A stretch of DNA of 64,000 bases from an uncultured euryarchaeote. Its GTDB lineage: Archaea > Thermoplasmatota > Poseidoniia > Poseidoniales > Poseidoniaceae. Under the pieces are notes generated by a model that was given only the letters and a program-made list of their open reading frames with translations, was not told where the DNA came from and did no database searches. Of this stretch, positions 12,007-54,245 are shown one piece after another. The stretch lies in contig CALBRH010000063.1 of the NCBI GenBank assembly GCA_937899865.1, positions 1,957-65,956 of the forward strand, read 5' to 3'. The translations under genes were made by a program, and so were the position numbers. Positions within the stretch are counted from its first letter, which is position 1. Every line of letters begins with the position of its first letter.

Positions 12007-12041
12007 ACAACCTCTTAATTCATCAATTAGCATACTCTCGC

Positions 12042-15157: not shown

Positions 15158-15176
15158 TCTACATCGTTCAATTTGT

Positions 15177-21223: not shown

Positions 21224-22372
21224 ATGGTCAACTTCAAACTTGATGAAATGCAAGAAGGTCTAAGAGACCTTGCCCGTGAATTTGCCCTTGATGAAATAAG
21301 GCCAAATGCAGAACACTGGGACGAAAATTCACAGTATCCTAAAGATGCGATATCGGCTGCTCATGATCTCGGAATTCTCAATTTACATATCCCGGAGCAA
21401 TATGGTGGAATGGGTTTAGGTTGTATTGAGGAAGTTTTGGTTAATGAAGAACTTGCTTGGGGCGACCCGGGTTTTGCAACAGCTGCATATGCTACGGCTT
21501 TGGCATGTGCTCCATTGATTACTGGTGCTACCGATGAACAAAAAGAAATCTGGTTGAGAAAAGTTGCTGAAGAAGGACAACTTGCCTCGTACGCGGTTAC
21601 TGAACCAGGAGCAGGTTCTGATGTTGCTGCTTGCAAGACCACTGCAGTATTAGACGGAGATGAATATGTCATTAATGGAGAAAAAATGTGGATTACTGGT
21701 GCTGGTTATTCAGATTTCTTTTTTGTATTAGCTAAAACTGATCCAGATGCAGGATATCGTGGAATGTCAGGATTTATTGTCGAAAAAGATGCTGAAGGAT
21801 TTTCCTTAGGGAAAAAAGAAACCAATATGGGTCAAAGATGTTCTGATACAAGGTCGATTGTCTTTGATAATGTTAGAGTCAACAAGGACCAATTAGTTGG
21901 CGAAAGTGAATCTGGTGGTTGGATGAATGCTATGAAAGCATTTGATTTGAGTCGACCTAATATTGCTGCGCATGCAACTGGTTTAGCTAGAGCATCTTAC
22001 GAGCATGCTTTACAATATTCTAATGAAAGAATGACCTTTGGTAAGCCATTACACAAGCATCAAGCAATCCAATTCATGCTGGCGGATATGAAGACGAAAA
22101 TTGAAGCCTCAAGAATGTTAACTTGGAAATCAGCATTTGAATCAGATCAGGGAATTAGAAATACAGAATCTGCGGCTCATGCAAAGCGTTTTGCTGCTGA
22201 CACTGCTATGGAAGTATCTACTGATGCAGTACAGATTTTCGGAGGCTATGGCTACTCTGAGGAATATCCAGTTGCAAGACTTATGAGAGGCGCTAAGGTA
22301 ATGCAAATTTACGAAGGTTCTTCTCAGGTTCAGCGTATGATTATTGGACGTGAAATAACTAGAGATTTCTAA
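21224..22372 (+). CDS. Acyl-CoA dehydrogenase
   Basis: ACAD blocks YAVTEPGAGSD, KMWITGAG, QIFGGYGY and IYEGSSQVQR. Confidence 0.9.
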   Translation: MVNFKLDEMQEGLRDLAREFALDEIRPNAEHWDENSQYPKDAISAAHDLGILNLHIPEQYGGMGLGCIEEVLVNEELAWGDPGFATAAYATALACAPLITGATDEQKEIWLRKVAEEGQLASYAVTEPGAGSDVAACKTTAVLDGDEYVINGEKMWITGAGYSDFFFVLAKTDPDAGYRGMSGFIVEKDAEGFSLGKKETNMGQRCSDTRSIVFDNVRVNKDQLVGESESGGWMNAMKAFDLSRPNIAAHATGLARASYEHALQYSNERMTFGKPLHKHQAIQFMLADMKTKIEASRMLTWKSAFESDQGIRNTESAAHAKRFAADTAMEVSTDAVQIFGGYGYSEEYPVARLMRGAKVMQIYEGSSQVQRMIIGREITRDF

Positions 22373-22396: not shown

Positions 22397-22987
22397 TTGG
22401 CAAAATCAATACCAGCGATAATTCTCAGTGGTGGATTAAGTAAGCGCCTTGGAAAGCCTAAGGCTTTGGTTGAAGTCAATGGAACAACATTGTTAGAACA
22501 TGCGATAGATAAGTTGCATAATGTTGGTTGTAATCCAATTGTAGTTGTAGTGAATAAAGACTTACAATTTGAGGCACTGATGAGATCTAAAGGTGCGGTT
22601 ATAGTAGTAAATAAAAACCCAGAAAAAGGGCGCACTGGTAGTCTAAAAATAGGTTTAAACTCAATTTTATCCGAACTTGGAAGAATGCCAAAATCAGTAA
22701 TCATGTCGCCGATAGATAGACCAGGTTGGAAATCAGGACATATAACAAAATTACTAGAATCAAATGTATCTTCTTGTCTTTTACAAAATGGCAAGAAAGG
22801 TCATCCAGTACATTTAGTAAAGAGTGACTTACTTAATGTGATAAACGCTTCAGATGATACTCCACTGAGAGATTTAGTTGATTTTGATACGGTTGAAATT
22901 CATGATGGCTTGTTATCATTAAATATCGATACACCGGATGATCTCACAATTTTGTTAGATAATTCACAATTTTTTGATAAACTTTGA
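22397..22987 (+). CDS. MobA/MocA-like nucleotidyltransferase (molybdenum cofactor cytidylyl/guanylyl-transferase)
   Basis: N-terminal AIILSGGLSKRLGKPKAL motif, 196 aa, next to xdhC. TTG start. Confidence 0.7.
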   Translation: MAKSIPAIILSGGLSKRLGKPKALVEVNGTTLLEHAIDKLHNVGCNPIVVVVNKDLQFEALMRSKGAVIVVNKNPEKGRTGSLKIGLNSILSELGRMPKSVIMSPIDRPGWKSGHITKLLESNVSSCLLQNGKKGHPVHLVKSDLLNVINASDDTPLRDLVDFDTVEIHDGLLSLNIDTPDDLTILLDNSQFFDKL

Positions 22988-23025: not shown

Positions 23026-23901
23026 ATGACGAAGCAGACGCTGGCTTGGGCATTAGACAAGTTAGCGCTTAGAAGAAGGGTGGTTATAGCTAGTGTAGTT
23101 GATACATCTGGCAGTGTGCCTGGAAAAGTTGGTGCACGCTTGGCAGTAGCAGAATCAAGTGATGGTTTTCATGGTACTATCGGTGGTGCAGGATTGGAGT
23201 TAAAGGTACTAAATCGATGCATGGAGATTCTAGAAAACCATTTTGAACCATTTGGCGAAGTTCAAACATTTGGTTTAAACAAAAGTGCGAAGGGCTATGA
23301 AGTACAACCTCTGGATTCATTGTGCGGGGGCCGAGTAACAGTGTCTATTGAATTAATCATTCCACCACCTCATGTTCTAATGATGGGGGGCGGTCATTGT
23401 GCAAATTCTCTAGCTAAGACCATTAATTCACTTAATTGGCATCATTCAGTTACTGATTCTAGGCAAGAATATTGTAATGCTGAAGTATTTCCTAAAGCAT
23501 CAGAATTAATCCATTCATCGGTAAGCGAATTTCTAAATAAAGAGAATCACGACTCAATCAATCGATTTTCTGATATTTTATTACTTGGTCACGATTGGTC
23601 TGAAGACCAACAAAGATTGTTAGGTTTGCTGAAGTTGTGCCAAAATAACAATTCAAAACTGGATGGGAAAATTTTTCCACGTATCGGAGTGATTGGTAGC
23701 CGTAGTAAATGGCAATCATTTTGTAAAGCAGCAATTAAAGATGGAATAAATAGCCAACTTTTGGAAGAAGTCATTTGTCCAATTGGAATCAATATCGGTG
23801 CTGAATCGCCTGAAGAAATCGCTATAGCTGTAACTGCTCAAATCCTTTCATTATCTAAAGGAGTAACCGTGAGTGACAAAAATTGGCGTGAATCATTGTA
23901 A
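23026..23901 (+). CDS. xdhC: XdhC/CoxI-family molybdoenzyme maturation factor
   Basis: N-terminal XdhC_CoxI-like region (ASVVDTSGSVPGKVGARLAV) and a C-terminal Rossmann-like region (LMMGGGHCANSLA...IGAESPEEIAIAV). Confidence 0.75.
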   Translation: MTKQTLAWALDKLALRRRVVIASVVDTSGSVPGKVGARLAVAESSDGFHGTIGGAGLELKVLNRCMEILENHFEPFGEVQTFGLNKSAKGYEVQPLDSLCGGRVTVSIELIIPPPHVLMMGGGHCANSLAKTINSLNWHHSVTDSRQEYCNAEVFPKASELIHSSVSEFLNKENHDSINRFSDILLLGHDWSEDQQRLLGLLKLCQNNNSKLDGKIFPRIGVIGSRSKWQSFCKAAIKDGINSQLLEEVICPIGINIGAESPEEIAIAVTAQILSLSKGVTVSDKNWRESL

Positions 23902-24441: not shown

Positions 24442-24509
24442 GAGTGCCCCTGGCGAGATTTACATTTCAAAACGGCGGCGTGATATTGGATTTTTTGCTA
24501 ATTTACAAA

Positions 24510-25640: not shown

Positions 25641-25743
25641 GGTTGATGCACTAATCTCTCTTGCTTCAATATAACCAATTCCTTTACGATATACTTGTTC
25701 ATTAGGTAGTTATATTGATTTAACAAAGGTATTACAGTAAATC

Positions 25744-27078
25744 ATGGCGGAGACGTTGGAGGCTGAGTTAATTGGGGAAGAATCCTCAACCAATTTGCTT
25801 GCTGGTTTACTAATTGCCTCATTACTAATCAGTGCCTTATTCCTAGTGATTGCTTATTCCCCAGAGGAAAAAACCACAATGAATGCTATTTCTTCAGATA
25901 CATCAAATGAATGGCGAGCATTTTCAGTTGTTGCTCCAATCGATACTGGAATCAATGTTTATCATGACCATTTTCGAACCAATGAAACATATCCTCAGTG
26001 GTTATTGGATGAACTTGGAGTAAACAAAGTCTGTGATTTAACTTTCAATGGAACATGGCAAGAAAGGTACGATGCTGACAAAGCAGATTGTTGGGATAAT
26101 TTGACTACCTCTGATATTGTTTATTTTCCTGGAACTAAAATTATTGGTACATCTCCTGATGGAGATGGCGGGATTCTAATTTTGGACGATCCTAACGATG
26201 GCCACGGGACTGCTGTAACTGGTTCAGTAATCGATGCTAATTCAGATGCGGTAATTTTCTTTGTCGAGGGCTTTTCTGATAGTGCTGTTTTGGCTGCTGC
26301 TAACCAACCTTTAGTAGATGTCATCTCAACTTCCTTTGGGGCAATTGGCTCGATTCCAGTTCCTGGAATTGAAGATGCTACCAAAGTAGCTGTGGTCGAG
26401 AAAAATAAATTGCATACAGGTGCTGCAGATAATTCACCATCTCCTGCGATACAAGATGCAACAGCAGGGCCTCCATGGTCAATAGGTATCGCAGGATATG
26501 CCGAAGAAGGAGACGACCAAAAAGAAATAATGTCGGGTTCCTATCCAGATATTTCAGCAGATTGGACTCAATATCTGCCTAATCATGATGATATCGATGG
26601 TTATCATGAAACCTCAGGGACCTCATTTGCTACTCCAAGAACAGCTGGAATTATTTCCTATGTTCTTGAGAGTTTACGTCATGAATTTTCAGACAACAGG
26701 TCAGGAGCATCACAGGAGCGTGGCGGAATGATGGTCGTTGGAGATAATTTTACTGTGTCAAATGCACAAATTAGAGAAGCGATTAATCTATCTGCATGGT
26801 ATCCTGATTTTGGTTGGGATCCAACTTCTGGAACAATGCCTATTTCACCTATCTTGCCATGTACACAGACCGGCTGGGGTTTTGTCAACTTATCTAACAT
26901 TGAACCAATTATTGCACACTTAAACCAATCACAAATATTCGATGACAGGCCATCAGATGTCGAAGCATGTATGTCTGCCAATCAAGAGATGCGAGAATCA
27001 TATTGGGGTGCATATCCTAGTGCTTCTTTTTCATCAAATATTATTTTCTCAAAAGAATATGTAACTTGGAGAGATTGA
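25744..27078 (+). CDS. Subtilisin-like serine protease (S8 family), N-terminally membrane-anchored
   Basis: Catalytic triad contexts IDTGINVYH (Asp), GHGTAVTGS (His) and SGTSFATPRTAG (Ser). N-terminal TM LLAGLLIASLLISALFLVIAY. Confidence 0.75.
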   Translation: MAETLEAELIGEESSTNLLAGLLIASLLISALFLVIAYSPEEKTTMNAISSDTSNEWRAFSVVAPIDTGINVYHDHFRTNETYPQWLLDELGVNKVCDLTFNGTWQERYDADKADCWDNLTTSDIVYFPGTKIIGTSPDGDGGILILDDPNDGHGTAVTGSVIDANSDAVIFFVEGFSDSAVLAAANQPLVDVISTSFGAIGSIPVPGIEDATKVAVVEKNKLHTGAADNSPSPAIQDATAGPPWSIGIAGYAEEGDDQKEIMSGSYPDISADWTQYLPNHDDIDGYHETSGTSFATPRTAGIISYVLESLRHEFSDNRSGASQERGGMMVVGDNFTVSNAQIREAINLSAWYPDFGWDPTSGTMPISPILPCTQTGWGFVNLSNIEPIIAHLNQSQIFDDRPSDVEACMSANQEMRESYWGAYPSASFSSNIIFSKEYVTWRD

Positions 27079-27140
27079 CACTTTTCAATTTGGTACTAAG
27101 AAACCAATTATTGATTAATCAGTGTTGACTGGAGTTATGT

Positions 27141-29057
27141 ATGACAAGAATGAGTAATGCAGTATCAATTGTATTAATTTCGCTAATGCTACTACCTTCG
27201 CTTGGAGCGATTGTTCCTGCTGATGCGGAGCCTGTAACAGTTGAAGAAGAAGGTTGGTGGGTCGATACTACTGTTGACCGTAACAAAAATGGCATTGGCG
27301 ACATGATTGAGCGTCATATCGATAATCCAATTCTTCTAAAAGATGGAACATTGCCAATAATTGTAGATTTTGACCATACTCCAGATGAAGAAGATGTAAT
27401 TATGCTTGAACAACAAGTTGACTATGAACATCAGTTTTACCTTCCAGCGATCGATGCTGTCGCAGGCAGAGTTCCGGTTGCTCTATTAGACAAAGCAATT
27501 TCACTTCCTGGGGTTGTGATGCTCGAACTTGATGGTATAATGACTATCCAAAATGGAGACGCAGTTGCGCTTCACGGTGTAGATACAGCATGGCAAGAAA
27601 CAGGCTATGATGGATCTGGTACAACGGTTGCAATTATCGATACAGGTATCGATGGTTTACATTCTAGTCTTGATGATCAAGATGATGACCCTGAAACTAA
27701 TGACCCTAAAGTAGTGGCTTTTTATGATCCAGTAAATAATCCAAGTCTTACCAATGGAACAGAAGTATTTCCCTACGATGACCAAGGACATGGCTCTCAT
27801 TGTGCAGGAACTACAGCGGGAACTGGTGCTCCAACCTATGAAAACCCTGGAATGGCCCCACAAGCAAAATTAGTTGGAGTAAAGGTGTTAGATTCTGGAG
27901 GATCTGGTTCTTTTGCAGTTGTAATGGCTGGAATGCAGTGGACTATTGATAATAGATACCAGTTCAACATCAGGGTTGCCTCTATGTCTCTTGGAGCATT
28001 TGGTATAATTGAATGGACTTCTTCTGAAGAAGATAGTGTTAACAGAATGGCTAATGATATGGTGTACAATGATATTACGCTGTTTATCGCTGCAGGTAAT
28101 TCTGCTGGTAGAGGTACCATTGGGACTCCTGGTAGTGCCGAAGATGCAATTACAGTAGGTGCATTGGATAAAGATTCATCAATTGCTGCCTATTCAAGTC
28201 AAGGTCCAACAGAAGAGAACAGGGTCAAGCCAAATCTTGCTTATGTTGGCTCTGATGTCATGTCGGTTGCTCACAACACAGGAGATGGTTATACAGCCTT
28301 TTCAGGAACTTCAATGGCTACTCCTGGTGCTGCTGGAGTTGCTGCTCTTATGCTACAAGCAAACCCTGATTTAAGTCCGTTTGAAGTTAGAAATTTCATG
28401 CAAGAAACTGCCGAGTACCGTGCATGTACATACATGGGCGATCCTGCTGGAATTGATGGATGTGATGACAATGATGCTCAAAATATCATTACTAAAAACC
28501 GCCAAAACAATGTTTACGGACATGGTGAAGTACGTGCTTTAGAATCAGTTTTGGCAGCTGCTGAAAAATACTATGTTTTTGATTCCTCAATGCAAATTAC
28601 AATTGAAAATGATCCAACTCATGATAATTCGCACACTCACTTAACTCCAAAAGAAGCAATCGAGTTCACGACTTCTGGAGGAATTGAATCAATCCAGTGG
28701 CGAAGTAATCATATTGTTGACGATTGGACAAATCTGCAATCTTTTGAAAAGACTGATACCGAGGGTCATGTTTCTGCAATTGATATTATCAATCAACTTG
28801 AACACCTGCCAGGAATTGATTTAGATGGCAACCATACAATTTCAATTAGAGGCTTGAAATCTAATTCGAGTGGAGGTCACTCATCCTCACCACTTGTTAC
28901 TATCGATATCATGTTGATGGACACAGCATCTGCCTTCATGCAAGAGTCAGAGGAGACTCCTGGATTCACAATATTTGCAGTATCAGTCGCTTCTGCTATT
29001 GCATTATTTGTCAATCAGAGAAAGTTAGAATCGAATTCAATATATGAAGAAGATTAA
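27141..29057 (+). CDS. Subtilisin-like serine protease (S8 family) with a signal peptide and a PGF-CTERM-like C-terminal anchor
   Basis: AIIDTGIDGLH (Asp), HGSHCAGT (His) and SGTSMATPGAAG (Ser). The C-terminus is ...EETPGFTIFAVSVASAIALFVNQRK... Confidence 0.85.
   Translation: MTRMSNAVSIVLISLMLLPSLGAIVPADAEPVTVEEEGWWVDTTVDRNKNGIGDMIERHIDNPILLKDGTLPIIVDFDHTPDEEDVIMLEQQVDYEHQFYLPAIDAVAGRVPVALLDKAISLPGVVMLELDGIMTIQNGDAVALHGVDTAWQETGYDGSGTTVAIIDTGIDGLHSSLDDQDDDPETNDPKVVAFYDPVNNPSLTNGTEVFPYDDQGHGSHCAGTTAGTGAPTYENPGMAPQAKLVGVKVLDSGGSGSFAVVMAGMQWTIDNRYQFNIRVASMSLGAFGIIEWTSSEEDSVNRMANDMVYNDITLFIAAGNSAGRGTIGTPGSAEDAITVGALDKDSSIAAYSSQGPTEENRVKPNLAYVGSDVMSVAHNTGDGYTAFSGTSMATPGAAGVAALMLQANPDLSPFEVRNFMQETAEYRACTYMGDPAGIDGCDDNDAQNIITKNRQNNVYGHGEVRALESVLAAAEKYYVFDSSMQITIENDPTHDNSHTHLTPKEAIEFTTSGGIESIQWRSNHIVDDWTNLQSFEKTDTEGHVSAIDIINQLEHLPGIDLDGNHTISIRGLKSNSSGGHSSSPLVTIDIMLMDTASAFMQESEETPGFTIFAVSVASAIALFVNQRKLESNSIYEED
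28959..29057 (+). other. PGF-CTERM-like sorting signal (putative archaeosortase target)
   Basis: PGF tripeptide (nt 28959-28967), then a 15-aa hydrophobic helix, then basic residues. The tail after the helix is longer than I expect for the canonical signal. Confidence 0.5.
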
Positions 29058-29071
29058 TTTCATCATAAACT

Positions 29072-29081
29072 GATATTTTTT
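29072..29081 (+). terminator. Candidate oligo-T terminator after the protease gene
   Basis: A T6 run at 29076-29081, within 25 nt of the stop. Confidence 0.3.
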
Positions 29082-29131
29082 CCTTTGCCATCGGCGGTGA
29101 AGTAAAGAGTAATACGCATCGACCACGACAT

Positions 29132-30721
29132 ATGTCGTGGCTCAAAGACCCAGAGAGCCAAGGTAATCAAAAAATAGGTTTGACATATCGACTATTAAGG
29201 AGATTTAACCGCTCTCTTATGTCTGTGTGGTTTAGAGAGTTAGATATTGTTGATAATGAAAACATGCCACATGAAGGAGGAGTCATATTTGTTTCATGGC
29301 ATCCAAGTGGTTTGATTGATCCAATGCTACTACATGCTTCATTGCCTGGAAAATTATCAATTCTTGCCAAACATACATTGTTCGAAATACCGGTCTTAGG
29401 CCGGATGATTAGGGCAGGTGGTGCGTTGCCAATTTATCGTGCCAAAGATAGTGATAATCTGGAATTGTCTAAACAAAAAAACGCTGAAATGTTAGAAAAT
29501 GCCGGAATGGAAATTTCTTATGGGGGCCGATTATTACTGTTCCCAGAAGGAAAAACTCATACTGAAGCAAATGTAAACAGAGCAAAAACCGGTGCTGCAA
29601 GAATCATGTTAAACGCTTTACGCAATGCTCAAATTAACGAATTGCCAAAGCCAAATATAATTCCGGTAGGGCTTCATTATTCTAATTCTCAAAAATTTAG
29701 AGAACGTGGAGCAGTTATTCTTGAAAGGCCAATGAATTTACCCGAAATACCTCCATTGGTGGAAGATGAAACTCAACAAAAGGAAACTGACTATGAATGG
29801 GTTCAAAGTGTTACAAAATCTATAGAATCAGAACTGAAACGGGCAAGTCTGTCTAAAACTACTTGGGAAGAAAGGCGGTTGATTTGGTTGGCAAGAAGTG
29901 TTGTTCATGCCGAGAGGGCAATCCAGAGTGGAGAAAAAATCCAGCGTCCAAGTTATGCAGAATCGGTAATTGGTGCTAGGAGGATGAGAGCAGGGTGGGA
30001 GTTTTATAATGAAAATAATCCAGACAAGATTTCACCATTAGTAGAGAAATCAAAAGATCATTTTGCCGAATTAGAATCTATTGAAGCTACTCCTTATGAT
30101 GTTGCAGCAAAACCAGAGAAACCCAGTTTGTTTGGTTATTTAGGTGCATTAATCTCATGGTTATGGGTCGCTGCGTGGATGTTAGGTTTAGTGACTTGGA
30201 GTGCAATATTAGGAAATGTTCCACCATATCAAGCAAATTATCTTACAATGTGGCAACTAAAGAAAAGAGGTGTTTCAGATTCTATACATGGTACCTTAAA
30301 AATTGGAACTGCAGTCATAATGTTCCCTATTTGGTGGATTTTTGTTTCTCTATCCGTTACAGTCATCTTTCTGGCTACGGATAGTCCAGTATACATTTTA
30401 CTAAACAAACATTGGCTATTGGCTTACTTCACACAAATTAATCCAATAATAATGTTCTTTGTATTGCTTATTTGGTGGCCGACATCTGGAAAATTACATA
30501 TGAAACTCTATTCAAGATTGGTAAGAAATTGGCGGAATCTTAAGCGTTGGAAAAATTGGCGCAAGAATCAATTTTACTGGGATAAATTGCAAAAGAATCA
30601 AAGAGAAATCGGTGGACTGCTAATTAATTTAGGAGATGGATTAGTTTTGCCTGGAGATGAGGATTGGCAAGAACCAACAACTGGTAGCGATGACTTTACT
30701 TATGTTAAATCAAGAGTTTAA
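29132..30721 (+). CDS. Lysophospholipid/glycerol-phosphate acyltransferase (PlsC-like) with a C-terminal multi-TM region
   Basis: Acyltransferase block I FVSWHPSGLIDP, block III LLLFPEGKTH and a block IV-like IIPVGLHY. TM helices are in the C-terminal third. Confidence 0.7.
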   Translation: MSWLKDPESQGNQKIGLTYRLLRRFNRSLMSVWFRELDIVDNENMPHEGGVIFVSWHPSGLIDPMLLHASLPGKLSILAKHTLFEIPVLGRMIRAGGALPIYRAKDSDNLELSKQKNAEMLENAGMEISYGGRLLLFPEGKTHTEANVNRAKTGAARIMLNALRNAQINELPKPNIIPVGLHYSNSQKFRERGAVILERPMNLPEIPPLVEDETQQKETDYEWVQSVTKSIESELKRASLSKTTWEERRLIWLARSVVHAERAIQSGEKIQRPSYAESVIGARRMRAGWEFYNENNPDKISPLVEKSKDHFAELESIEATPYDVAAKPEKPSLFGYLGALISWLWVAAWMLGLVTWSAILGNVPPYQANYLTMWQLKKRGVSDSIHGTLKIGTAVIMFPIWWIFVSLSVTVIFLATDSPVYILLNKHWLLAYFTQINPIIMFFVLLIWWPTSGKLHMKLYSRLVRNWRNLKRWKNWRKNQFYWDKLQKNQREIGGLLINLGDGLVLPGDEDWQEPTTGSDDFTYVKSRV

Positions 30722-30769: not shown

Positions 30770-31384
30770 ATGGGTGAGCAGTTGGTAGGTTCTGAGTATG
30801 TCAAAATGACTCCGTCTGCTGACAAAACCGTATGGAGTGCAACAGTCAACAAAAAGGAAACAGAATTGTTAATCAATTCTAACGCAGTTTTACTTGATGT
30901 ACTTCGTGATCAAGTTGGTACATTAGGCGTTAAACGTGGATGTGATTTAGGGACATGTGGTTGTTGTACTGTAATGATTGATGGTGAGCCAAGGTTGTCT
31001 TGTCTATGTTTAGCAGGGCAGGTTTCAGGTACTGAAATTATCACTGTTGAAGGCCTTGCTGACGGGGCTCACTTGGCACCGATTCAAGCTTGTTTTGCAA
31101 AATATGGCGGCTCACAATGTGGTTTCTGCACTCCAGGATTTTTGGTCGCTTCTCAAGCCTTGTTAGAACATAATAATTCCCCTTCGGATGAACAAATTTC
31201 TGAAGCGATTGAAGGCAATTTGTGCCGCTGTACAGGATATCAGCAAATAATTGAATCAATTCAAGAAGCGGCAAAAATACACCGCGGTGAAAGTGCTGTA
31301 CCTCAACCTGCATCCTCTCCACATCCAGACCCTCATCCTGATGGGCCTGGAGAGCCATCTATGCCGCCCGGTCATGCGAAGTGA
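30770..31384 (+). CDS. [2Fe-2S]-binding small subunit of a xanthine dehydrogenase/aldehyde oxidoreductase-family molybdoenzyme
   Basis: CDLGTCGCCTV (plant-type cluster) and GFCTPGF...CRCTGY (second cluster). Pro/His-rich C-terminal tail. Confidence 0.9.
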   Translation: MGEQLVGSEYVKMTPSADKTVWSATVNKKETELLINSNAVLLDVLRDQVGTLGVKRGCDLGTCGCCTVMIDGEPRLSCLCLAGQVSGTEIITVEGLADGAHLAPIQACFAKYGGSQCGFCTPGFLVASQALLEHNNSPSDEQISEAIEGNLCRCTGYQQIIESIQEAAKIHRGESAVPQPASSPHPDPHPDGPGEPSMPPGHAK

Positions 31385-31389
31385 TAATC

Positions 31390-34191
31390 ATGTCAGCAGG
31401 ATATCGTCAGCAACCGGGCAAATCGTCAGAAAAGCGAACTGATGGTAAAAGAGTTGCTGGGAAGCAGGCATTTCCACCCCCTGGTTCGGGTGGTTCAAAT
31501 CCAACAATGAAGCCAAGAGACCTCAATTTCATACCGGAGTCGGTAGGTGGAAAAGAGCCACAACCTGCTGGTTCACATATACACGACCGTATTCGAACAG
31601 GAACAGTTGTTGGAAAACCCCTGCCTTTGGTTGATTCAAATGCTAAAGTTACTGGGCAGGCTTGGTATGGTGATGATATTAGATTACCCAATGAGGCAAT
31701 CGGCAAAATTTTGCGCTCACCTCATCATTATGCAAAGATAAAATCGATTGATACTTCAAGAGTTGAAGCATTACCTGGAGTCATTTCTGTTGCGACTGGT
31801 AAAGATGCCCCATCTCGTTTTGGTGTTTTACCAGTGACAAAAGATGAGCATGCAATGGCAGTTGAGAAAGTTAGACATATTGGTGATTTAGTTGCGTGTG
31901 TGTGTGCAGAAACAGAAGCGATTGCTATAGAGGCATTGTCCTTATTTGATATAGAATGGGAAATATTGGAGCCAGTTTTTGATAGAAAAAAGGGCTTAGA
32001 AGATGTTGATGAACCTATTCATTGGCGAGGCAAATATCATCTGTCAAAGACGAATGTACAAAAAAGAGTATTCCAGGAATTTGGTGACCGTTCTTTGGTG
32101 GACAATCCACATGCTTCTTCTCACGGCAAATGGAGTATGGAAGGAGTGCATCATGGGTTTACTGAACCACATGCTGTTGTTGCACATTGGGATCCTAATG
32201 GTAGATTACAGTTGTATACTCCTCAGCAAGTACCACATTATACTCACCGAGCGTTATCTACGGTTTTGGATGTACCCATGCATCAAATAAACGTAGTAAG
32301 GACCTTCGTTGGAGGTGGCTTTGGTGGCAAATCAGATCCGTTCCCTCATGAAATGTGTGCAGCAATACTTGCTAGAAAATCTGGTAGGCCAGTTAGAATT
32401 ACTTTTGATAGAGAAGAGGTTTACTGGATTAACCGAGGTAGACATCCTAGTGACATAGAAGTAAAGATGACTGCTGATGATGTTGGTAGAATTTCTGGAT
32501 TTGATATCGATGCACTAATCGATGGAGGAGGCTTTGCATCTTTTGGTCATGTTACATCATACTACAATGGAGTTCTAGCAACCGCCCCATATGAGTTAGG
32601 GTCATTTCACTATACTGGAGCAAGAGTTTGGACTAACAAACCGGCTTCAGGTGCGATGCGTGGACATGGGGCAGTCAATACCAGATGTGCTGTTGAAGTT
32701 GGTCTTGATGAAATGGCCGAACAGATGAATGTTGATCCAATAGACCTTAGATTAGCCAATTTATTGCCCCCACATAGTCGAACAATAACAGGTTTTAGAA
32801 TTACTTCAAATGGCATGCGGGAAGCTCTCGAGAAGGTGCGCGAAGGTTCAAATTGGGATGAGAAATTCCGTCAATTACCTCTTGGTAAAGGTATTGGAGT
32901 AGGTTGTGGATTCTTCATTTCTGGTTCAGGTTTACCTATTCACTGGGACCCTAACAGATTCCCACATGCTACTGTACACATTCAAGTTGACATGGACGGT
33001 GGTGTAACAGTCCATACAGGTGCAGCAGATATTGGACAAGGTTCAACTACTGCAGTAGCACAAGTAGTAGCAGAAGTTTTAGCATTACCAATAGAGATGA
33101 TTCATGTTAGAAGCCATGAAAGTGATACATCTCCAGTTGATTTGGGTTCATATTCAAGCAGAGTTACATTCATGAACGCAAATGCAGCAATAAGGGCTGC
33201 TTTAGAGATTAGAGATCAACTACTCAAAGCAGCATGGGACATACTTGGTTATCACCCAAATACCTTAATTTTGAATGATCGAAGAATCTATTACAAGCAT
33301 GATCCTTCAATTGGAGTTTCTTATCTAAAAGCATTACACAAAGCACAGGAAGACAAAGGTTCACTAATTGCTAGTGGAGCTTACCGCTCACCCCCTATGG
33401 GTGGTGTTCACAAAGGTGCTGCTGCGGGACTTGCTCCTGCTTATTCTTTCTCAGCATATGTTGCAGAAGTAGATGTTGACGTTGAGTTGGGATTGGTTAA
33501 ATGTACCAATGTGTGGGCTGCACATGACTGTGGAAAGGCACTCAATCCTTTAGCAGTGAAAGGTCAGATAATTGGTTCTTGTCACATGGGTCTTGGCCAG
33601 GTATTGTCTGAGAAAATGGTCTATGGAAGAACAGGTCATTTGCAAAATGCAAACTTGTTAGAATACAAAATCCCCTCCGTACATGAGATGCCTCATGTTG
33701 AACCTATAATCATTGAATCCTGTGACCCAGAAGGTCCATTTGGTGCTAAAGAAGCAGGTGAAGGCCCATTATTGCCAATTTTGCCAGCAGTTGTCAATGC
33801 TGTTTACGATGCTGTTGGTGTTAGGTTTAGAGATTTACCACTTACTCCAGATGTTGTATTCAAAGGCATTGAGAGAAAGCGAAAGTCACTCAAATTGGAT
33901 GATTGTATGGATTTGCCAAGCCCTAGACTGGAACATGGTCCAATGCAAGAAGTACTTTCTTCAAGAGCTGATGAACACAAATTACGTGACAAAGCAAGGC
34001 AAAGAACAGAAGATACCTCTCATTATGTCAATGGAGTGTTGTTTGGTTTTGATCCAAACGTCCCACTTGAGGACCAAGTTGATGGATGGCGAATGGCTAC
34101 CGAACCGGATCCAAAGCAATTAGCTGAATTGGGTCTAGCAGGCAAAGCATGGCTTAAGAAAACCCAACGAGAGATGGGAGGTGATTCATGA
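31390..34191 (+). CDS. Molybdopterin-binding large subunit of a xanthine dehydrogenase/aldehyde oxidoreductase-family enzyme
   Basis: FVGGGFGGKSD, SGAMRGHGAV, QGSTTAVAQV and FGAKEAGEGP blocks. The track start is the GTG at 31381, overlapping the upstream stop. There are N- and C-terminal extensions. Confidence 0.9.
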   Translation: MSAGYRQQPGKSSEKRTDGKRVAGKQAFPPPGSGGSNPTMKPRDLNFIPESVGGKEPQPAGSHIHDRIRTGTVVGKPLPLVDSNAKVTGQAWYGDDIRLPNEAIGKILRSPHHYAKIKSIDTSRVEALPGVISVATGKDAPSRFGVLPVTKDEHAMAVEKVRHIGDLVACVCAETEAIAIEALSLFDIEWEILEPVFDRKKGLEDVDEPIHWRGKYHLSKTNVQKRVFQEFGDRSLVDNPHASSHGKWSMEGVHHGFTEPHAVVAHWDPNGRLQLYTPQQVPHYTHRALSTVLDVPMHQINVVRTFVGGGFGGKSDPFPHEMCAAILARKSGRPVRITFDREEVYWINRGRHPSDIEVKMTADDVGRISGFDIDALIDGGGFASFGHVTSYYNGVLATAPYELGSFHYTGARVWTNKPASGAMRGHGAVNTRCAVEVGLDEMAEQMNVDPIDLRLANLLPPHSRTITGFRITSNGMREALEKVREGSNWDEKFRQLPLGKGIGVGCGFFISGSGLPIHWDPNRFPHATVHIQVDMDGGVTVHTGAADIGQGSTTAVAQVVAEVLALPIEMIHVRSHESDTSPVDLGSYSSRVTFMNANAAIRAALEIRDQLLKAAWDILGYHPNTLILNDRRIYYKHDPSIGVSYLKALHKAQEDKGSLIASGAYRSPPMGGVHKGAAAGLAPAYSFSAYVAEVDVDVELGLVKCTNVWAAHDCGKALNPLAVKGQIIGSCHMGLGQVLSEKMVYGRTGHLQNANLLEYKIPSVHEMPHVEPIIIESCDPEGPFGAKEAGEGPLLPILPAVVNAVYDAVGVRFRDLPLTPDVVFKGIERKRKSLKLDDCMDLPSPRLEHGPMQEVLSSRADEHKLRDKARQRTEDTSHYVNGVLFGFDPNVPLEDQVDGWRMATEPDPKQLAELGLAGKAWLKKTQREMGGDS

Positions 34192-35165
34192 TGCTAATGC
34201 CACCATTTACTCTTCATCATCCAAACACTATTGGAGAGGCGACATCGATAGCAGCTAATTTGATAGAACAAGAAGAGGATTTTGATTGGGTTGCTGGAGG
34301 TACAGATGTTCTGCCAAATTACAAATGGCGAATAAATCCAAAACCACATGTAATTTCATTGGCAAAAATACCAGAGGCAAACCAAATTAGCCCGTATGAA
34401 ATTGGTTGTATGACTAAACTTTCATCATTGACTCCAGAAAACGGAATACATCCTTTGATTGTAGAAGCAGCATCAAAAATAGCTTCATCTTTGATTAGAA
34501 AGAGTGCAACTGTAGGTGGAAATTTATGTCTTGATACCAGATGTTTTTGGTATAATCAAAGTGAAGATTGGCGACGTTCAATAGACTGGTGCCATAAAGC
34601 AGATTGTGGAACTGGAGCAGATTGTCGAGTAATTCCGAATCAAAACACACTTTGTGTTGCTACTTATCAAGGAGATTTAGCACCTAATTTCATGGCATTA
34701 GGGGCAAATGTTACTTTGATCGGTCCTAATGGAGAAAGAACAATGCCATTGAATGAATTTTATCAATTGGATGGTATGAAAAAGAATGTCTTACAACCAG
34801 GTGAATTCATGCTAAAGGTGACTTTGCCAAAAGACTCATTTGAATATTGCGGAAGCTATCAAAAGTTACGAGTTAGAGAATCTTGGGATTTCCCCGAAGC
34901 AGGCATTTCTGCAGTATGGAAAAAGGGTGACTATAATACATTGAAGATTGCTTCGACTGCGTTAGAATCGATACCTAAAACCCATGACGAACAAGTGTCA
35001 GAATTTACTTCATCTTGGGATAAAGGTTCTACAATCTCTCAATTATCCGAGGCTATTAGAAAATCGGTAAAACCAGTTAATAATACCGCTTTACCACCTA
35101 ATTATCGTCGGTCAGTAGTTAGAGTTCTTACTAAGCGAGCGTTGAAAAATATTGGATGTGAGTGA
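34188..35165 (+). CDS. FAD-binding medium subunit of the molybdoenzyme, with a Cys-rich insertion
   Basis: VAGGTDVLPN and ATVGGNL FAD-domain blocks. There is a six-Cys insertion between GGNL and GDLAPNFMALGA (nt 34527-34655). The start overlaps the large-subunit stop (ATGA). Confidence 0.85.
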   Translation: MMLMPPFTLHHPNTIGEATSIAANLIEQEEDFDWVAGGTDVLPNYKWRINPKPHVISLAKIPEANQISPYEIGCMTKLSSLTPENGIHPLIVEAASKIASSLIRKSATVGGNLCLDTRCFWYNQSEDWRRSIDWCHKADCGTGADCRVIPNQNTLCVATYQGDLAPNFMALGANVTLIGPNGERTMPLNEFYQLDGMKKNVLQPGEFMLKVTLPKDSFEYCGSYQKLRVRESWDFPEAGISAVWKKGDYNTLKIASTALESIPKTHDEQVSEFTSSWDKGSTISQLSEAIRKSVKPVNNTALPPNYRRSVVRVLTKRALKNIGCE

Positions 35166-36125
35166 ATGAAAAGAAGCAATACGAAATTGGTTGTAATTTT
35201 GTTCACATGTTTGTTGACTATCTCATTTTTACCGTTTAGTAGCGGACAAGACCAAGTTGAAATTCCATCATGGGAGGTAGGCTGGGAAACTAACATGGAC
35301 GGCGTCTATGAACTCCAATTATCAGGTGAAGAAGACATCACGGATTCAATAGAATTCTTTGTCGCAAATGATAGAATGGCTGACTTAAACTTGGAGATAA
35401 GCATTGAATGGGATGAATCAGAGAATATCCCTATCGAGTTGGATTATGATGAGTCAATTTCCGTATCTGCATCAGATAATCAAACATTTACTATCGAGAT
35501 TTCAGATGTTTCTGGTTATTCTTTTGAACGTTCGCCAAATGATTCTATGACTCTATTACTTACTGCACAAGAGATTTTGTTAGAACAACCACTTTCTACT
35601 CAAGAAATTGATGCTGAATTATCAGTTCCTGCAGTGTTTGATTTAACTTTGGAATCAGAATCTAAAGATGAGACTCTATTTGCAGGTTCATCGATAGAAT
35701 ACTCGCTTATTGTGACTAATGATGGTAATACAAAAGATGTCATAAAAATGCCAGAATCATCGATTAAATCCTGTCCAAGTGTTTCGGTTGAGGGGTTAGA
35801 TTCTATGAATGATATTGAGATCGAGAATTCCTCTACGAAAGATTTCGCAATTCGAATTTCAGCATCAGAATCACAACCAGAGAGGCTTTGTGAAATTACT
35901 ATTTCAATAAAATCAGCGGGTAATGGAAAAATATCTAGTATAGTTTTTGAAATAAATGTAAATTCAAATTCTGCTGAAAATGATGACAAAGGAGATTCTA
36001 ATGTTGAAGAATCACCTGATGATGATAATTCTGAACTTACTGAAACCAATACACTCAATTTCGTAATGGGTTATGAGATTATTTTGATGATAATGATTGC
36101 ATTGATATTTCGTTCTAGAAATTAA
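35166..36125 (+). CDS. Secreted acidic protein with a C-terminal TM anchor, possibly with CARDB/DUF11-like beta-sandwich repeats
   Basis: Signal peptide MKRSNTKLVVILFTCLLTISFLPF. The segment LFAGSSIEYSLIVTNDGNTKDV resembles CARDB-type strands. C-terminal helix YEIILMIMIALIF. The ATG directly abuts the upstream stop. Confidence 0.5.
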   Translation: MKRSNTKLVVILFTCLLTISFLPFSSGQDQVEIPSWEVGWETNMDGVYELQLSGEEDITDSIEFFVANDRMADLNLEISIEWDESENIPIELDYDESISVSASDNQTFTIEISDVSGYSFERSPNDSMTLLLTAQEILLEQPLSTQEIDAELSVPAVFDLTLESESKDETLFAGSSIEYSLIVTNDGNTKDVIKMPESSIKSCPSVSVEGLDSMNDIEIENSSTKDFAIRISASESQPERLCEITISIKSAGNGKISSIVFEINVNSNSAENDDKGDSNVEESPDDDNSELTETNTLNFVMGYEIILMIMIALIFRSRN

Positions 36126-36299
36126 TGTTAAAAAATAGCAATATGTGGCCTATTTTTAGTAATAATAACTGTTTGAAAATTGGTCATCATTGTCTATAAA
36201 CCATCGTATCAATTTGCTCACCAATGAGCAAGCATTATGAGTGGAGAGAATTTCGAGAGGATAGTAGTGCGCTATGCATTGTGCAAAAGGAGGAATAAT

Positions 36300-37889
36300 A
36301 TGGCGGATGAAGAGAAGAAAAAAATCAGTCTTGAGACTTGGCTCAAGGTTGGATTTATGGCTTCTCTACTAATTTCTGTTGTATTGATAGGTTTGTTCAG
36401 TCTAAACAAAGAAACTGTATTTTCACCCTACGAGCAAGATCCCGAATATTACAATATTCAGTTGACCGAAATGAGAGCTAATATGGGCGAAGACGGTACT
36501 GGGTACACAGTTGCTAACACAATGTCAACACCTATGTTAGTTAATGATTGGAAAGATCCTCATCGAACTTTACTAGTTATTGCTGCACCTGAGAAACCAT
36601 TCGATGCTGCAGAAGCTGCTGCGATTCACGACTTCGTGACTGAAAAAGGCGGAAAAGTTGTATTGGCTTCAAACTCTACCAATGCTCAACTTGTAGCTTC
36701 TGAATTTGGGGTAAAGTACTTTGATGCTCCAGTTGTTGATCCATTTCAATTTTATGAAGTAGCTGATGAAACAGGGCAGGCATTGAAACCCGATGAAAGA
36801 AAACTTTGGGCTGCTGCAAGCATTACTCGTGATGTCACTCAAATGGGTGATGAAAAGCATGTTCCTTGTTCGAATAACGATATAGATAATGCACGGGTTA
36901 ACGATTGTCGAATGCCTGTATTATTTCATAGAGCAACCGCAATCCAAGTATTAGATGAAGAGGTAGATGATGACAGGGAAGTCATGGTACTTGCACACGC
37001 ATCAACTCCTGCATTTATTGCAAGACAAGATACCAATATTGACAACCTAAACAATCCAACTCTTGGAGAAGGTAAAACCGGCCTGATAATCCGAATGGAT
37101 TATCCAGGAATAGAGGTTCTTGATGAGCAGCCAAACAACAACTTTGGTGAAGTTGATGTTACAGGTTCAATCGTATTTGTTTCAGATCATTCTGTTCTCG
37201 CTAACCATCTATGGAATCAAACAATAGGTGAAGAAACCGGTAAGCAACAATGCGAATCACCATATTATGTTTCAAATGCTTTGGGTAATTCTCACGCTTG
37301 TTGGGATAGTGCCTTATTCTCTTCTGATGGTAGAGAAGTGGAGTGGAATGGTAATGGTCCATATTTTGAAGCATTATTTTATGATATGATGGAATTCGAT
37401 AATGAGGAAATTACTACCAAGGTGACTAGAGATCCTTCAGAATTTAATTTGGTATTCGATGAAAGTAGACACGTTTCAAGTGCCCTTTCATCACCATTTA
37501 CCGAAGCGATTGGTGCGGTGGTTCTGCTTACAAGCGATAATGTGTTGAAGTGGTTAATTATCCTCAATCTCTTTGCATTGCTTGCCATAGCAATTATGGT
37601 AGTACCAGAAAAAGAGAATTGGCGCCATGTCTTTGACTTGACGAGATTTAGAGAAAGGCCAACAAAAATAGATACTTCCCAATATCAAATGCGAGTTAGG
37701 GAAGCGTTCTTGTCTAAAGTTAGACAATTTAACGATCTCACGAGAGATGAATTTGCTCGCAAAACCCCAGCGGAAATCATGTATATGGTAAAAGACCCGC
37801 GCTTAGTAGAACTGATTAGTTCTAACCGTTCCTACTCCAACGAAGAATTGAGGGAAGTGATTCCCCAAATACGTCGTTGGGGTAAATGA
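36300..37889 (+). CDS. Bitopic membrane protein (N-terminal and C-terminal TM helices around a large external domain), possibly DUF4350-like. First gene of the MoxR cluster.
   Basis: AGGAGG Shine-Dalgarno-like motif before the ATG at 36300 (track start 36237). TM helices at FMASLLISVVLIGLF and LIILNLFALLAIAIMVV. The family call rests on architecture and context only. Confidence 0.5.
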   Translation: MADEEKKKISLETWLKVGFMASLLISVVLIGLFSLNKETVFSPYEQDPEYYNIQLTEMRANMGEDGTGYTVANTMSTPMLVNDWKDPHRTLLVIAAPEKPFDAAEAAAIHDFVTEKGGKVVLASNSTNAQLVASEFGVKYFDAPVVDPFQFYEVADETGQALKPDERKLWAAASITRDVTQMGDEKHVPCSNNDIDNARVNDCRMPVLFHRATAIQVLDEEVDDDREVMVLAHASTPAFIARQDTNIDNLNNPTLGEGKTGLIIRMDYPGIEVLDEQPNNNFGEVDVTGSIVFVSDHSVLANHLWNQTIGEETGKQQCESPYYVSNALGNSHACWDSALFSSDGREVEWNGNGPYFEALFYDMMEFDNEEITTKVTRDPSEFNLVFDESRHVSSALSSPFTEAIGAVVLLTSDNVLKWLIILNLFALLAIAIMVVPEKENWRHVFDLTRFRERPTKIDTSQYQMRVREAFLSKVRQFNDLTRDEFARKTPAEIMYMVKDPRLVELISSNRSYSNEELREVIPQIRRWGK

Positions 37890-37907
37890 AATTAGGAGGA
37901 AAAAGAC

Positions 37908-38090
37908 ATGCAACCAGCCCCCCCACCCCAGCCTGCGCCAGCGCAGCCAGGGATGCCAGCAGCACCTGCACCAGCAGCGCCAATGCCAGCACCACCAATG
38001 CCAGCAGCACCAGCGCCAGCGGCTCCAATGCCAGCAGCACCTGCACCAGCAGCCCCAGCAGCACCGGCCGCTCCGGCAAAGCCGAAGCAC
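37908..38090 (+). repeat. GC-rich imperfect tandem repeat encoding a (P/A/M)-rich low-complexity tract
   Basis: Repeated atgccagcagcacc.gc.ccagc.gc.cca units encode MPAAPAPAAP-type repeats. Composition contrasts sharply with the AT-rich surroundings. Confidence 0.8.
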
Positions 38091-39059
38091 CAGAGTAGCC
38101 CAGAAGTTCGCGAGAGACTATCTGCAGTAGGAGCAATCGCTCAAGCGATTAGTGCCGAAGTTCAGAAAGTAATTATCGGTAAATCACACATTATTGATAA
38201 TGTACTCGTCAACATTCTTTCCAACGGAAATCTTCTGTTCGAAGATTACCCAGGTTTGGCAAAGACATTGATGACTAATACTTTCGCAGATGCACTTGGT
38301 TGTGATTTCAAGCGTGTACAATTTACACCTGACTTGTTACCTGCAGATATTACAGGTACCAATGTTTACGATGCCAAGAAGGGTGAATTTACATTCAAGC
38401 CAGGACCATTGTTCTGTAATCTACTTCTTGCTGACGAGATAAACCGTGCTCCGCCTAAGACTCAAGCGGCTTTGCTTGAGGCTATGCAGGAAAAGCAAGT
38501 AACAATCGGTACAGTAACTCACAAACTACCAGCACCGTTTATTGTTATGGCAACACAAAATCCAGTAGAGCAAGAAGGAACATATCCACTTCCTGAAGCA
38601 CAATTAGACCGATTTATGTTTAAGATGTCTGTAGGATATCCAGACCGTGCTGATGAGGACGAAATTTTAGCTCGTCGTATTACTCGTGGTAAGGATGCTG
38701 TTGATGTTGATGTTATTACTGATCCTCAGAGAGTTATTGCCATGCAACAAGCCTGTGAAGATGTATATGTTGACCCTGCACTTAGAATGTACATGGTTGA
38801 GATTGTAGCACGTACAAGAGAAGATCCAAGAGTACTTGTTGGTTCCTCACCTCGTGGTTCTCAAGCATTACTGAAGACTTCAAGAGCAGCAGCTGCACTT
38901 AGAGGCAGAGATTTCGTTACTCCAGATGATATCAAGGCTATTGCTGAATTGGCAATTGCTCACAGAATCATCTTAAAGCCGGAGCATCAAATCAAGGGAC
39001 TTGAAGCCGGTGAAGTAATTCAAACAATCCTGCGAGAAGTACCAGTACCAACAGTCTGA
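37908..39059 (+). CDS. MoxR-family AAA+ ATPase with a Pro/Ala-rich N-terminal extension of about 60 aa
   Basis: LFEDYPGLAKT (MoxR-type Walker A), LLADEINRAPPKTQAALLEAMQE (Walker B and sensor), and the VMATQNP and GSSPRG blocks. Confidence 0.9.
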   Translation: MQPAPPPQPAPAQPGMPAAPAPAAPMPAPPMPAAPAPAAPMPAAPAPAAPAAPAAPAKPKHQSSPEVRERLSAVGAIAQAISAEVQKVIIGKSHIIDNVLVNILSNGNLLFEDYPGLAKTLMTNTFADALGCDFKRVQFTPDLLPADITGTNVYDAKKGEFTFKPGPLFCNLLLADEINRAPPKTQAALLEAMQEKQVTIGTVTHKLPAPFIVMATQNPVEQEGTYPLPEAQLDRFMFKMSVGYPDRADEDEILARRITRGKDAVDVDVITDPQRVIAMQQACEDVYVDPALRMYMVEIVARTREDPRVLVGSSPRGSQALLKTSRAAAALRGRDFVTPDDIKAIAELAIAHRIILKPEHQIKGLEAGEVIQTILREVPVPTV

Positions 39060-39072
39060 TAATCTACTTACG

Positions 39073-40395: not shown

Positions 40396-40404
40396 GGTGA
40401 AAAA

Positions 40405-43745: not shown

Positions 43746-43771
43746 GCTTTAGTTCAAGAACCTGCGCAAAG

Positions 43772-44671: not shown

Positions 44672-44672
44672 A

Positions 44673-45689: not shown

Positions 45690-45698
45690 CTAATCACC

Positions 45699-53081: not shown

Positions 53082-53085
53082 TTTC

Positions 53086-54158: not shown

Positions 54159-54245
54159 GCGGCAGTCGCATAGCCTGGCCATTGCGCCGGATTGCTAATC
54201 CGGTGGTGTCTCACCTCGGGAGTTCGAATCTCCCCTGCCGCGCCA
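54159..54245 (+). tRNA. tRNA-Ser (anticodon GCU) with a genomically encoded CCA
   Basis: Folded by hand. Acceptor GCGGCAG/CTGCCGC. Anticodon stem CCGGA/TCCGG with loop TTGCTAA. Long variable arm GGTG-TCT-CACC. T-arm GGGAG-TTCGAAT-CTCCC. Discriminator G, then CCA. Confidence 0.85.

Follow-up and report, generated by a model that had tools for sequence, protein, structure and literature searches.

Which reaction could be catalysed by a molybdenum enzyme whose subunits resemble those of a reductase with a textbook anaerobic role, when its genes belong to an aerobic archaeon? The question is raised by a stretch of 64,000 nucleotides from an uncultured euryarchaeote (positions 1,957 to 65,956 of contig CALBRH010000063.1, assembly GCA_937899865.1), which as a whole is called the window here. 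Within positions 30770-35165 it holds three co-oriented open reading frames (ORFs) on the + strand, encoding the small (S), molybdenum (L) and FAD (M) subunits of one enzyme, and M carries a Cys-rich insertion. An initial annotation of the locus had likened this set to 4-HBCR (HcrCAB, the reductase of 4-hydroxybenzoyl-CoA), with a possible further iron-sulfur cluster in the insertion. Our analysis places the insertion on the [4Fe-4S] loop of HcrB, the FAD subunit of 4-HBCR, and the enzyme itself in a subfamily beside 4-HBCR. The features on which the argument is built are the following.

30770..31384, + strand: S, small subunit, HcrC-like, with two [2Fe-2S] clusters; 204 aa; Pfam Fer2_2 (1.3e-29) and Fer2
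31381..34191, + strand: L, molybdenum subunit of the molybdopterin cytosine dinucleotide (MCD) type, HcrA-like; 936 aa from GTG; Pfam Ald_Xan_dh_C, MoCoBD_1 and MoCoBD_2 (PF01315, PF02738, PF20256)
34188..35165, + strand: M, FAD subunit, HcrB-like; 325 aa; Pfam FAD_binding_5 (4.4e-31) and weak CO_deh_flav_C
34527..34655, + strand: predicted Hcr-type [4Fe-4S] loop of M; putative ligands Cys119 (34542-34544), Cys135 (34590-34592), Cys146 (34623-34625) and Cys156 (34653-34655)

The Cys-rich loop of the FAD subunit

The six cysteines of the insertion (114, 119, 135, 140, 146 and 156; nt 34527-34655) were found exactly where they had been annotated, and only the size of the insertion, given as about 45 residues, had to be corrected: relative to CutM the net gain is 42 residues (M is matched up to 114 and again from 169, CutM up to 117 and again from 130). 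The closest solved structure is HcrB of Thauera aromatica (1rm6_B, E 4.5e-41), to which M was aligned end to end in a single alignment running through the insertion, whereas the match to CutM, the next in rank (2e-17), was split in two around it. In the alignment with 1rm6_B, M Cys114/119/135/146/156 face HcrB Cys117/122/138/146/155, and Cys140 belongs to a stretch of 3 inserted residues that HcrB lacks. We take Cys122/138/146/155 to be the [4Fe-4S] ligands of HcrB.

The same four positions are singled out independently by conservation, and for this reason Cys119/135/146/156 are regarded as the probable ligands in M. They were invariant in 125/125 homologues (full-length representatives of clusters at 50% identity), while Cys114 occurred in 72/125 and Cys140 in 2/125; the six annotated cysteines thus divide into four that are family-wide and two that are not. 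To judge from these counts the Cys pattern of the loop is not a product of chance. Among the M subunits of Poseidoniales (n=53), Cys114/119/135/146/156 were all invariant (53/53), Cys140 was missing from one sequence only (52/53), and an additional Cys138 appeared in 37/53, including most of those from Marine Group IIb (MGIIb; the order Poseidoniales is Marine Group II, MGII). As far as the alignments tell, Cys140 is specific to the Poseidoniales clade and Cys114 is variable in the family. Furthermore, no part of M is better conserved in the order than the loop (majority fraction 0.92 versus 0.68 elsewhere).

The AlphaFold2 model of M had a predicted local distance difference test (pLDDT) score of 93.3, with values of 83-94 across the loop, and the Foldseek search with it returned 1rm6_B as top structural match (template modelling (TM) score 0.89, E 2.7e-30). 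On alignment and on fold, the insertion is positionally homologous to the [4Fe-4S] loop of HcrB, as had been proposed; from the sequence we infer that it would also be occupied by a [4Fe-4S] cluster.

Relatives among the molybdenum hydroxylases

The other two subunits lead to the same solved enzyme. L matched 1rm6_A with 581 bits, its residues 76-833 covering 10-765 with only three short gaps, the next being CoxL with 258 bits; for S the top match was 1rm6_C with 162 bits, the next one reaching 141 bits. From all three subunits the Cox, Xdh and Pao proteins are far more distant than HcrCAB is, and the NCBIfam equivalog models of 4-HBCR (TIGR03193/03194/03195) were the top match for each subunit. 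The order S-L-M, which had been recognized as hcrCAB-like, was present in every loop-bearing relative in which all three genes were callable (the count was limited to such loci, ORF calling being unreliable in several high-GC ones). The gene orders of hcrCAB and hbaBCD are likewise gamma-alpha-beta.

Membership in the xanthine-oxidase (XO) family, as a heterotrimer of the MCD type, is borne out by the domains and motifs of the molybdenum subunit, by the eight cysteines of S and by the maturation genes. In S, the plant-type motif is made up of Cys58/63/66/78 and the second one of Cys117/120/152/154, both canonical; by inspection, no twin-arginine or hydrophobic signal was seen at its N-terminus. 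In L the molybdenum-site motifs TPQQVP, GGGFGGK, AMRGHG, AADIGQGS, GSYSSRVTF and GAKEAGEG are present, generic as they are, and align with HcrA, and the catalytic Glu is kept (E794 corresponds to HcrA E726 in the alignment). The mocA-like and xdhC genes were indeed found upstream of S-L-M, at a distance of about 7-8 kb:

21224..22372, + strand: acyl-CoA dehydrogenase (ACAD), directly upstream of mocA; Pfam ACAD domains
22397..22987, + strand: MocA-like molybdenum cofactor cytidylyltransferase, making the MCD cofactor; assigned on Pfam NTP_transf_3 and on TIGR03310, which is among the best NCBIfam matches, below its cut-off
23026..23901, + strand: XdhC-family maturation factor for cofactor sulfuration and insertion; Pfam XdhC_C and XdhC_CoxI

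Within this family a xanthine or purine dehydrogenase had to be considered, as apparently the same genes ('xdhC and yagS') were treated as putative xanthine dehydrogenase, together with a highly transcribed xanthine/uracil permease, in an earlier transcriptome study of MGII (PMC9723583), and the generic name 'xanthine dehydrogenase family protein' stands on some NCBI records. The equivalog cut-offs of XdhA, XdhB and XdhC were missed, however (504 < 780, 101 < 310 and 154.6 < 217), the XdhA score being also well under that of the 4-HBCR model; the solved xanthine dehydrogenase and XO structures are distant from L (about 151-162 bits), and no solved xanthine dehydrogenase in the PDB comparison has an insertion at this site. 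Additionally, the residue after GGGFGGK is Ser in L, at the position which is presumably the substrate-binding Glu802 in bovine XO. We consider this function very unlikely. Aerobic CO dehydrogenase, CoxSLM of form I or form II, appears to have a practically negligible chance: among the solved relatives CoxL and CutM do rank next, but the NCBIfam models of this enzyme scored 273-305 where 950-991 is required, the genes do not follow the coxMSL order, CutM is without the loop, and the active-site loop of L reads AMRGHG, whereas the motif of the form I enzyme is AYRCSFR.

Substrate and direction of the reaction

The reading that we prefer, and hold with somewhat better than even confidence, is that of an HcrCAB-like enzyme of an uncharacterised sister subfamily, in which the cofactor would be matured by MocA and XdhC and the [4Fe-4S] cluster, lying at the surface, would be the port to a one-electron carrier. 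Electrons would then pass from this cluster to FAD, over the two [2Fe-2S] clusters and finally to the molybdenum. Ferredoxin would be the obvious candidate for the carrier, since 2-oxoacid oxidation in the archaea of this phylum generally relies on ferredoxin, and for the same reason a ferredoxin-linked enzyme would not be out of place in an aerobic archaeon. Concerning the chemistry, the two nearest characterised enzymes, 4-HBCR and the urolithin dehydroxylase Ucdh, are both reductive; by analogy with them, and with slightly less than even confidence, we propose that a hydroxyl para to an electron-withdrawing group of the carboxyl-thioester type could be removed reductively, as by 4-HBCR, from a phenolic acyl-CoA or a close compound.

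Several results weigh against this reading. The 4-HBCR equivalog cut-offs were not reached by S (171.5 versus 257.8), L (757.5 versus 994.55) or M (225.7 versus 404.55). When other loci were scored as controls, L from an acidobacterial one (L084) did pass its cut-off (1023), its M subunit failing (325.6 < 404.55), and the L subunits of three loci from the same clade as Poseidoniales (L061, L070 and L024) scored 818-833, below it. In a neighbour-joining tree of L, which is distance-based and without support values, with one characterised sequence and one outgroup, the proteins of Poseidoniales, other Thermoplasmata and Planctomycetota/KSB1 formed a clade sister to Thauera HcrA and its acidobacterial relatives. 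The root was a distant plasmid-borne family member, taken from a tblastn search of L against plasmids which gave only distant relatives (identity at most 34%), used solely as outgroup. L of the window is 41% identical to HcrA and 52-56% to its clade mates, and M is 30% identical to HcrB.

The genomic surroundings and the host point in the same adverse direction. Neither in the window nor in the conserved Poseidoniales synteny could an aryl-CoA (4-hydroxybenzoate-CoA) ligase or a benzoyl-CoA reductase or oxygenase be found, and no canonical ferredoxin motif (CxxCxxCxxxC[PAGS]) was present in any of the six frames of the window, so that the aromatic-CoA and ferredoxin context that had been looked for is missing from these 64 kb. 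Literature searches gave nothing linking MGII or Poseidoniales to hydroxybenzoyl-CoA or to the benzoyl-CoA pathway. The host is aerobic, according to the genes of heme A and heme O synthase, which were found in the window as annotated (52020-54102), and 4-HBCR has been described as oxygen-sensitive (PMC12771579). The beta-oxidation neighbours, treated below as a clue to the substrate, may be coincidental. Finally, a four-Cys insertion at the same site is present in two enzymes that work oxidatively, PaoB being its carrier in one and the medium subunit of the Methylobacillus aldehyde oxidase in the other. Two further searches were negative: no 2-oxoglutarate:ferredoxin oxidoreductase was found in the window or in the conserved synteny, and nothing relevant in the literature joined furoyl-CoA dehydrogenase and 4-HBCR.

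Since the equivalog cut-offs are missed and L falls into the sister clade, the enzyme is, by the curated sequence criteria available, not an orthologue of 4-HBCR. L does stand nearer to HcrA than to ordinary hydroxylases, but beside the group of Thauera HcrA and not within it. The subfamily to which it belongs, itself uncharacterised, spans Poseidoniales, other Thermoplasmata, Planctomycetota, KSB1 and others, and it is common in aerobes. The enzyme is conserved across Poseidoniales and no peculiarity of this one genome, and the initial view that it is unexpected here is not established. Homologues nearer to Thauera HcrA were noticed in three loci of Acidobacteriota, typically aerobic soil bacteria (L082, L084 and L086), all of them with the order TetR, enoyl-CoA hydratase, S-L-M, Amidohydrolase_2; HcrA-like enzymes may be commoner in aerobes than the textbook role implies.

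It should be emphasized that by analogy with known enzymes the loop alone tells nothing about a reductive direction, because the oxidative PaoABC and the Methylobacillus aldehyde oxidase carry their four-Cys insertion at the same site, and thus the step from loop to reductive, ferredoxin-driven running, taken at first, does not follow. An oxidative hydroxylase or dehydrogenase, acting on an aldehyde, an N-heterocycle or a (hetero)aromatic acyl-CoA, with the [4Fe-4S] cluster as electron exit to ferredoxin or another acceptor and finally to the aerobic respiratory chain, has to be taken seriously. Most enzymes of the XO family are oxidative and the host is aerobic, E794 and all generic hydroxylase motifs are retained in L, the 4-HBCR thresholds are missed and no downstream benzoyl-CoA pathway is visible in the window. 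Against it, the similarity to PaoABC is far below that to HcrCAB (PaoC 208 versus 581 bits, PaoB 53 versus 144 bits), and the PaoABC equivalog cut-offs were missed widely (PaoC 288 < 1180, PaoA 129.6 < 322). The Cys spacing is of the Hcr type (C-x15-C-x7-10-C-x8-9-C, plus the NQS..WR motif) and not of the Pao type (C-x11-C-x8-C-x19-20-C), the gene order is unlike that of paoABC, and the nearest characterised relatives are reductases. We give the oxidative alternative an appreciable chance, although one well short of even; the spacing and the flanking motifs of the Poseidoniales loop favour a reductive enzyme.

For such a reductive HcrCAB-like enzyme a weak clue to the substrate was obtained from gene context. 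The ACAD gene stays beside mocA in several Poseidoniales loci, and its homologues, 52-53% identical, immediately precede S in the bacterial loci L061 and L068, where the genes are ordered aldehyde dehydrogenase, aldehyde dehydrogenase, enoyl-CoA hydratase, thiolase, ACAD, (SnoaL), S-L-M, alcohol dehydrogenase, 3-hydroxyacyl-CoA dehydrogenase. A CoA-thioester substrate would fit this neighbourhood, and ACAD is a possible functional partner. That the substrate would be 4-hydroxybenzoyl-CoA itself, feeding a benzoyl-CoA pathway, is on the other hand doubtful, and we think it unlikely. Still more speculative is the proposal that Poseidoniales, which among planktonic archaea are the most abundant in the oxic surface ocean, dehydroxylate phenolic acyl-CoA esters there by an oxygen-tolerant, ferredoxin-driven enzyme of the HCR type, adapted through the extra loop cysteines and the order-specific extensions of L and S. 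If it were true, phenolic dissolved organic matter or compounds derived from tyrosine would be handled by a CoA-dependent 'hybrid' route so far known only from anaerobes.

The cluster in Poseidoniales and its counterparts elsewhere

The overlapping stops and starts described for the three genes were only partly borne out. The L/M junction is a true ATGA overlap of 4 nt, but S and L overlap only if L starts at GTG 31381. The more likely start of L is ATG 31390, 5 nt past the S stop: orthologous proteins begin with a conserved Met that immediately adjoins the conserved GYRQQP motif, and ahead of ATG 31390 stands the sequence GTGAT, which resembles a Shine-Dalgarno element. For S an alternative start exists at 30806, and the gene call in GCA_003672825.1 gives 192 aa. 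An S-L fusion created by a frameshift was also considered, as two low-complexity ends meet at this junction, and was dropped in view of the conserved Met start and the upstream stop of the orthologues. The Pro/His-rich tail of S and both extensions of L, already annotated (the C-terminal one as about 110 aa), were confirmed:

31277..31381, + strand: Pro/His-rich C-terminal tail of S, residues about 170-204, past the end of HcrC homology (the 1rm6_C match stops at residue 170)
31390..31605, + strand: N-terminal extension of L, about 70 aa, with motifs GYRQQP, PGSGG, IPES.GG and QP.G.H.HD; Poseidoniales-specific
33880..34188, + strand: C-terminal extension of L, about 103 aa, with conserved H..RD..R, Y.NG.LFG and AG.AW; Poseidoniales-specific

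The DPHP motif of the tail is kept across Poseidoniales in the alignment of S subunits. Both L extensions are kept in MGIIa and MGIIb; the Thermoplasmata and most bacterial relatives lack them and align only with residues of about 75-835 of the query. The first 75 residues of L include G11, P9, S7, R6 and K6. A weak model of L (933 aa, shallow alignment, pLDDT 62.8) gave values below 50 for the N-terminal extension, and helices at 820-833 and 852-871 in the C-terminal one, with locally high pLDDT for its first part; as a rough view, this suggests that the former may be disordered and the latter partly helical.

Proteins identical to those of the window were found on Tara Oceans contigs and in the metagenome-assembled genome (MAG) GCA_003672825.1, and the homologues bear the names Candidatus Poseidoniales or Thermoplasmatota, which places the window in an MGII archaeon. 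With each GTDB species represented by a single genome, at least 600 matches were obtained on scanning with the loop motif, from the best 80 of which the distribution was drawn. These 80 include 52 species of Poseidoniales, from both families, followed by other Thermoplasmata, Planctomycetota, KSB1, Acidobacteriota and others, with 36-42% identity in M. Some of the contigs were of questionable origin. Full Poseidoniales synteny and 62-87% protein identity were seen on contigs filed under 'Verrucomicrobiales bacterium' and 'Salinimicrobium sp.' MAGs, which are therefore probably archaeal and mis-binned; a contig of a 'Patescibacteria group' MAG, with a molybdenum enzyme of the Thermoplasmata/bacterial clade, is likewise suspicious in its assignment. 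The contigs concerned are L012 (NZEQ01000021.1), L022 (CAXRAI010000016.1) and L071 (DASROJ010000082.1).

In MGIIb the genes follow each other as ACAD, mocA, xdhC, at most one subtilase-like gene, and S-L-M, after which DUF4350, MoxR and DUF58 are found. The window has the MGIIa arrangement, in which xdhC and S are set apart by about 7 kb (23902-30721) with RNase T, a DUF2071-DCC1 fusion, two subtilase-family genes and a membrane acyltransferase, and non-marine Thermoplasmata have a compact mocA-xdhC-S-L-M operon. The ancestral form of the cluster that the 52 species representatives of Poseidoniales share is mocA-xdhC-S-L-M. A 'gene' recurring upstream of xdhC in loci of Thermoplasmata (cluster c3) was discarded as a spurious Arg-rich ORF of high-GC DNA. 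Abutting the M stop, the window continues (35166-41328) with a surface protein bearing a signal/anchor, DUF4350, a MoxR AAA+ ATPase, DUF58 and a 307-aa protein without Pfam match. This conserved module keeps its place in almost every Poseidoniales locus; since it is absent beside the enzyme genes in other phyla, a connection with the enzyme is improbable.

Farther away in the window, a ThiF and rhodanese fusion (11982-13199; a MoeB/MOCS3-like sulfur-carrier activating enzyme), which adjoins riboflavin synthesis genes, could serve molybdopterin synthesis. A gene of tryptophan 2,3-dioxygenase (49610-50740; Pfam 1.1e-58), which has shikimate pathway genes of the archaeal type as neighbours (41330-46496), points to catabolism of aromatic amino acids or to synthesis of NAD de novo. 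The 884-aa polypeptide of 15144-17798 (E1_dh, Transket_pyr and Transketolase_C) is a fused alpha/beta E1 of a 2-oxoacid dehydrogenase and is followed by isocitrate/isopropylmalate dehydrogenase. An ABC substrate-binding protein of 729 aa (2234-4423), with transferrin-like and phosphonate-binding domains, is flanked by ABC ATPase and permease genes, and a 986-aa ORF without Pfam match (54247-57207, - strand) adjoins the only tRNA gene of the window (54159-54245, tRNA-Ser GCT).

In JGI and some NCBI records these Poseidoniales proteins already bear the automatically assigned name '4-hydroxybenzoyl-CoA reductase subunit alpha/beta', and other public records name them 'xanthine dehydrogenase family protein' or 'aldehyde oxidase'. 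In the MGII literature searched, the enzyme is not discussed, except in the study mentioned above, where 'xdhC and yagS' are taken for genes of xanthine dehydrogenase (PMC9723583); a review of Poseidoniales states that all four steps of molybdenum-cofactor synthesis are encoded, and this enzyme is not named there (PMC6461757). The MGII archaea are uncultured and very abundant, and the molybdenum enzymes using their cofactor are hardly discussed; the S-L-M cluster is an obvious consumer of it. With protein clusters of up to about 1,700 member sequences, the enzyme is probably a major molybdenum enzyme of an abundant uncultured archaeal order, mislabelled in several ways. Metabolic reconstructions should be corrected in that the cluster gives no ground for deducing 'anaerobic benzoate degradation' or 'xanthine catabolism', because the enzyme is an Hcr-type [4Fe-4S] member of a separate subfamily. 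A tractable biochemical target is thereby offered, a whole clade present in aerobes and standing beside the only ferredoxin-dependent reductase of the XO family.

Compared with known systems, the enzyme shares with PaoABC of E. coli (5G5G) and with the aldehyde oxidase of Methylobacillus sp. KY4400 (5Y6Q) the heterotrimeric architecture of the XO family and the position of the four-Cys insertion in the FAD subunit. The PaoABC insertion is documented as a [4Fe-4S] cluster, and in a 2026 preprint the [4Fe-4S] motif is regarded as characteristic of PaoABC-type aldehyde oxidoreductases. Unlike the window enzyme, both are oxidative, their FAD subunits score just 53-60 bits with the other Cys spacing given above, and in PaoABC the genes stand in the order S-M-L and the small subunit is exported by the twin-arginine translocation pathway. 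Ucdh (UcdCFO, the urolithin C 9-dehydroxylase of Enterocloster) resembles our enzyme in belonging to the XO family with 4-HBCR as its nearest characterised relative; it is the second reductive enzyme of this family, a reductive dehydroxylase which needs MCD and XdhC (PMC12771579). With 33% identity to 4-HBCR (PMC12771579) it is farther from HcrA than L of the window is; it also differs in gene order, uses NADH and acts on a substrate which is not a CoA ester.

HcrCAB of Thauera aromatica (1RM6/1SB3) and HbaBCD of Rhodopseudomonas palustris come from other than aerobic archaeal hosts, and the aryl-CoA ligase, ferredoxin and benzoyl-CoA genes, absent near the window enzyme, set them apart as well. 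4-HBCR has a substrate channel 18 Å long, lined with aromatic residues, that fits 4-hydroxybenzoyl-CoA. In comparison with HcrCAB the window enzyme has the N- and C-terminal extensions of L, the tail of S, Cys140 (with Cys138 in most MGIIb) and the 3-residue loop insertion, identities of only 41% (L) and 30% (M), missed equivalog cut-offs and an L subunit in the sister clade. Common to these enzymes are the 2Fe-2S / Mo / FAD order of the subunits, the nearly gap-free alignment of L, the maturation genes of the MCD type and the predicted fold of M, and with HcrB in particular the insertion of about 40 residues with the same four cysteines and the surrounding motif GGNLC.DTRC..YNQSE.WR.

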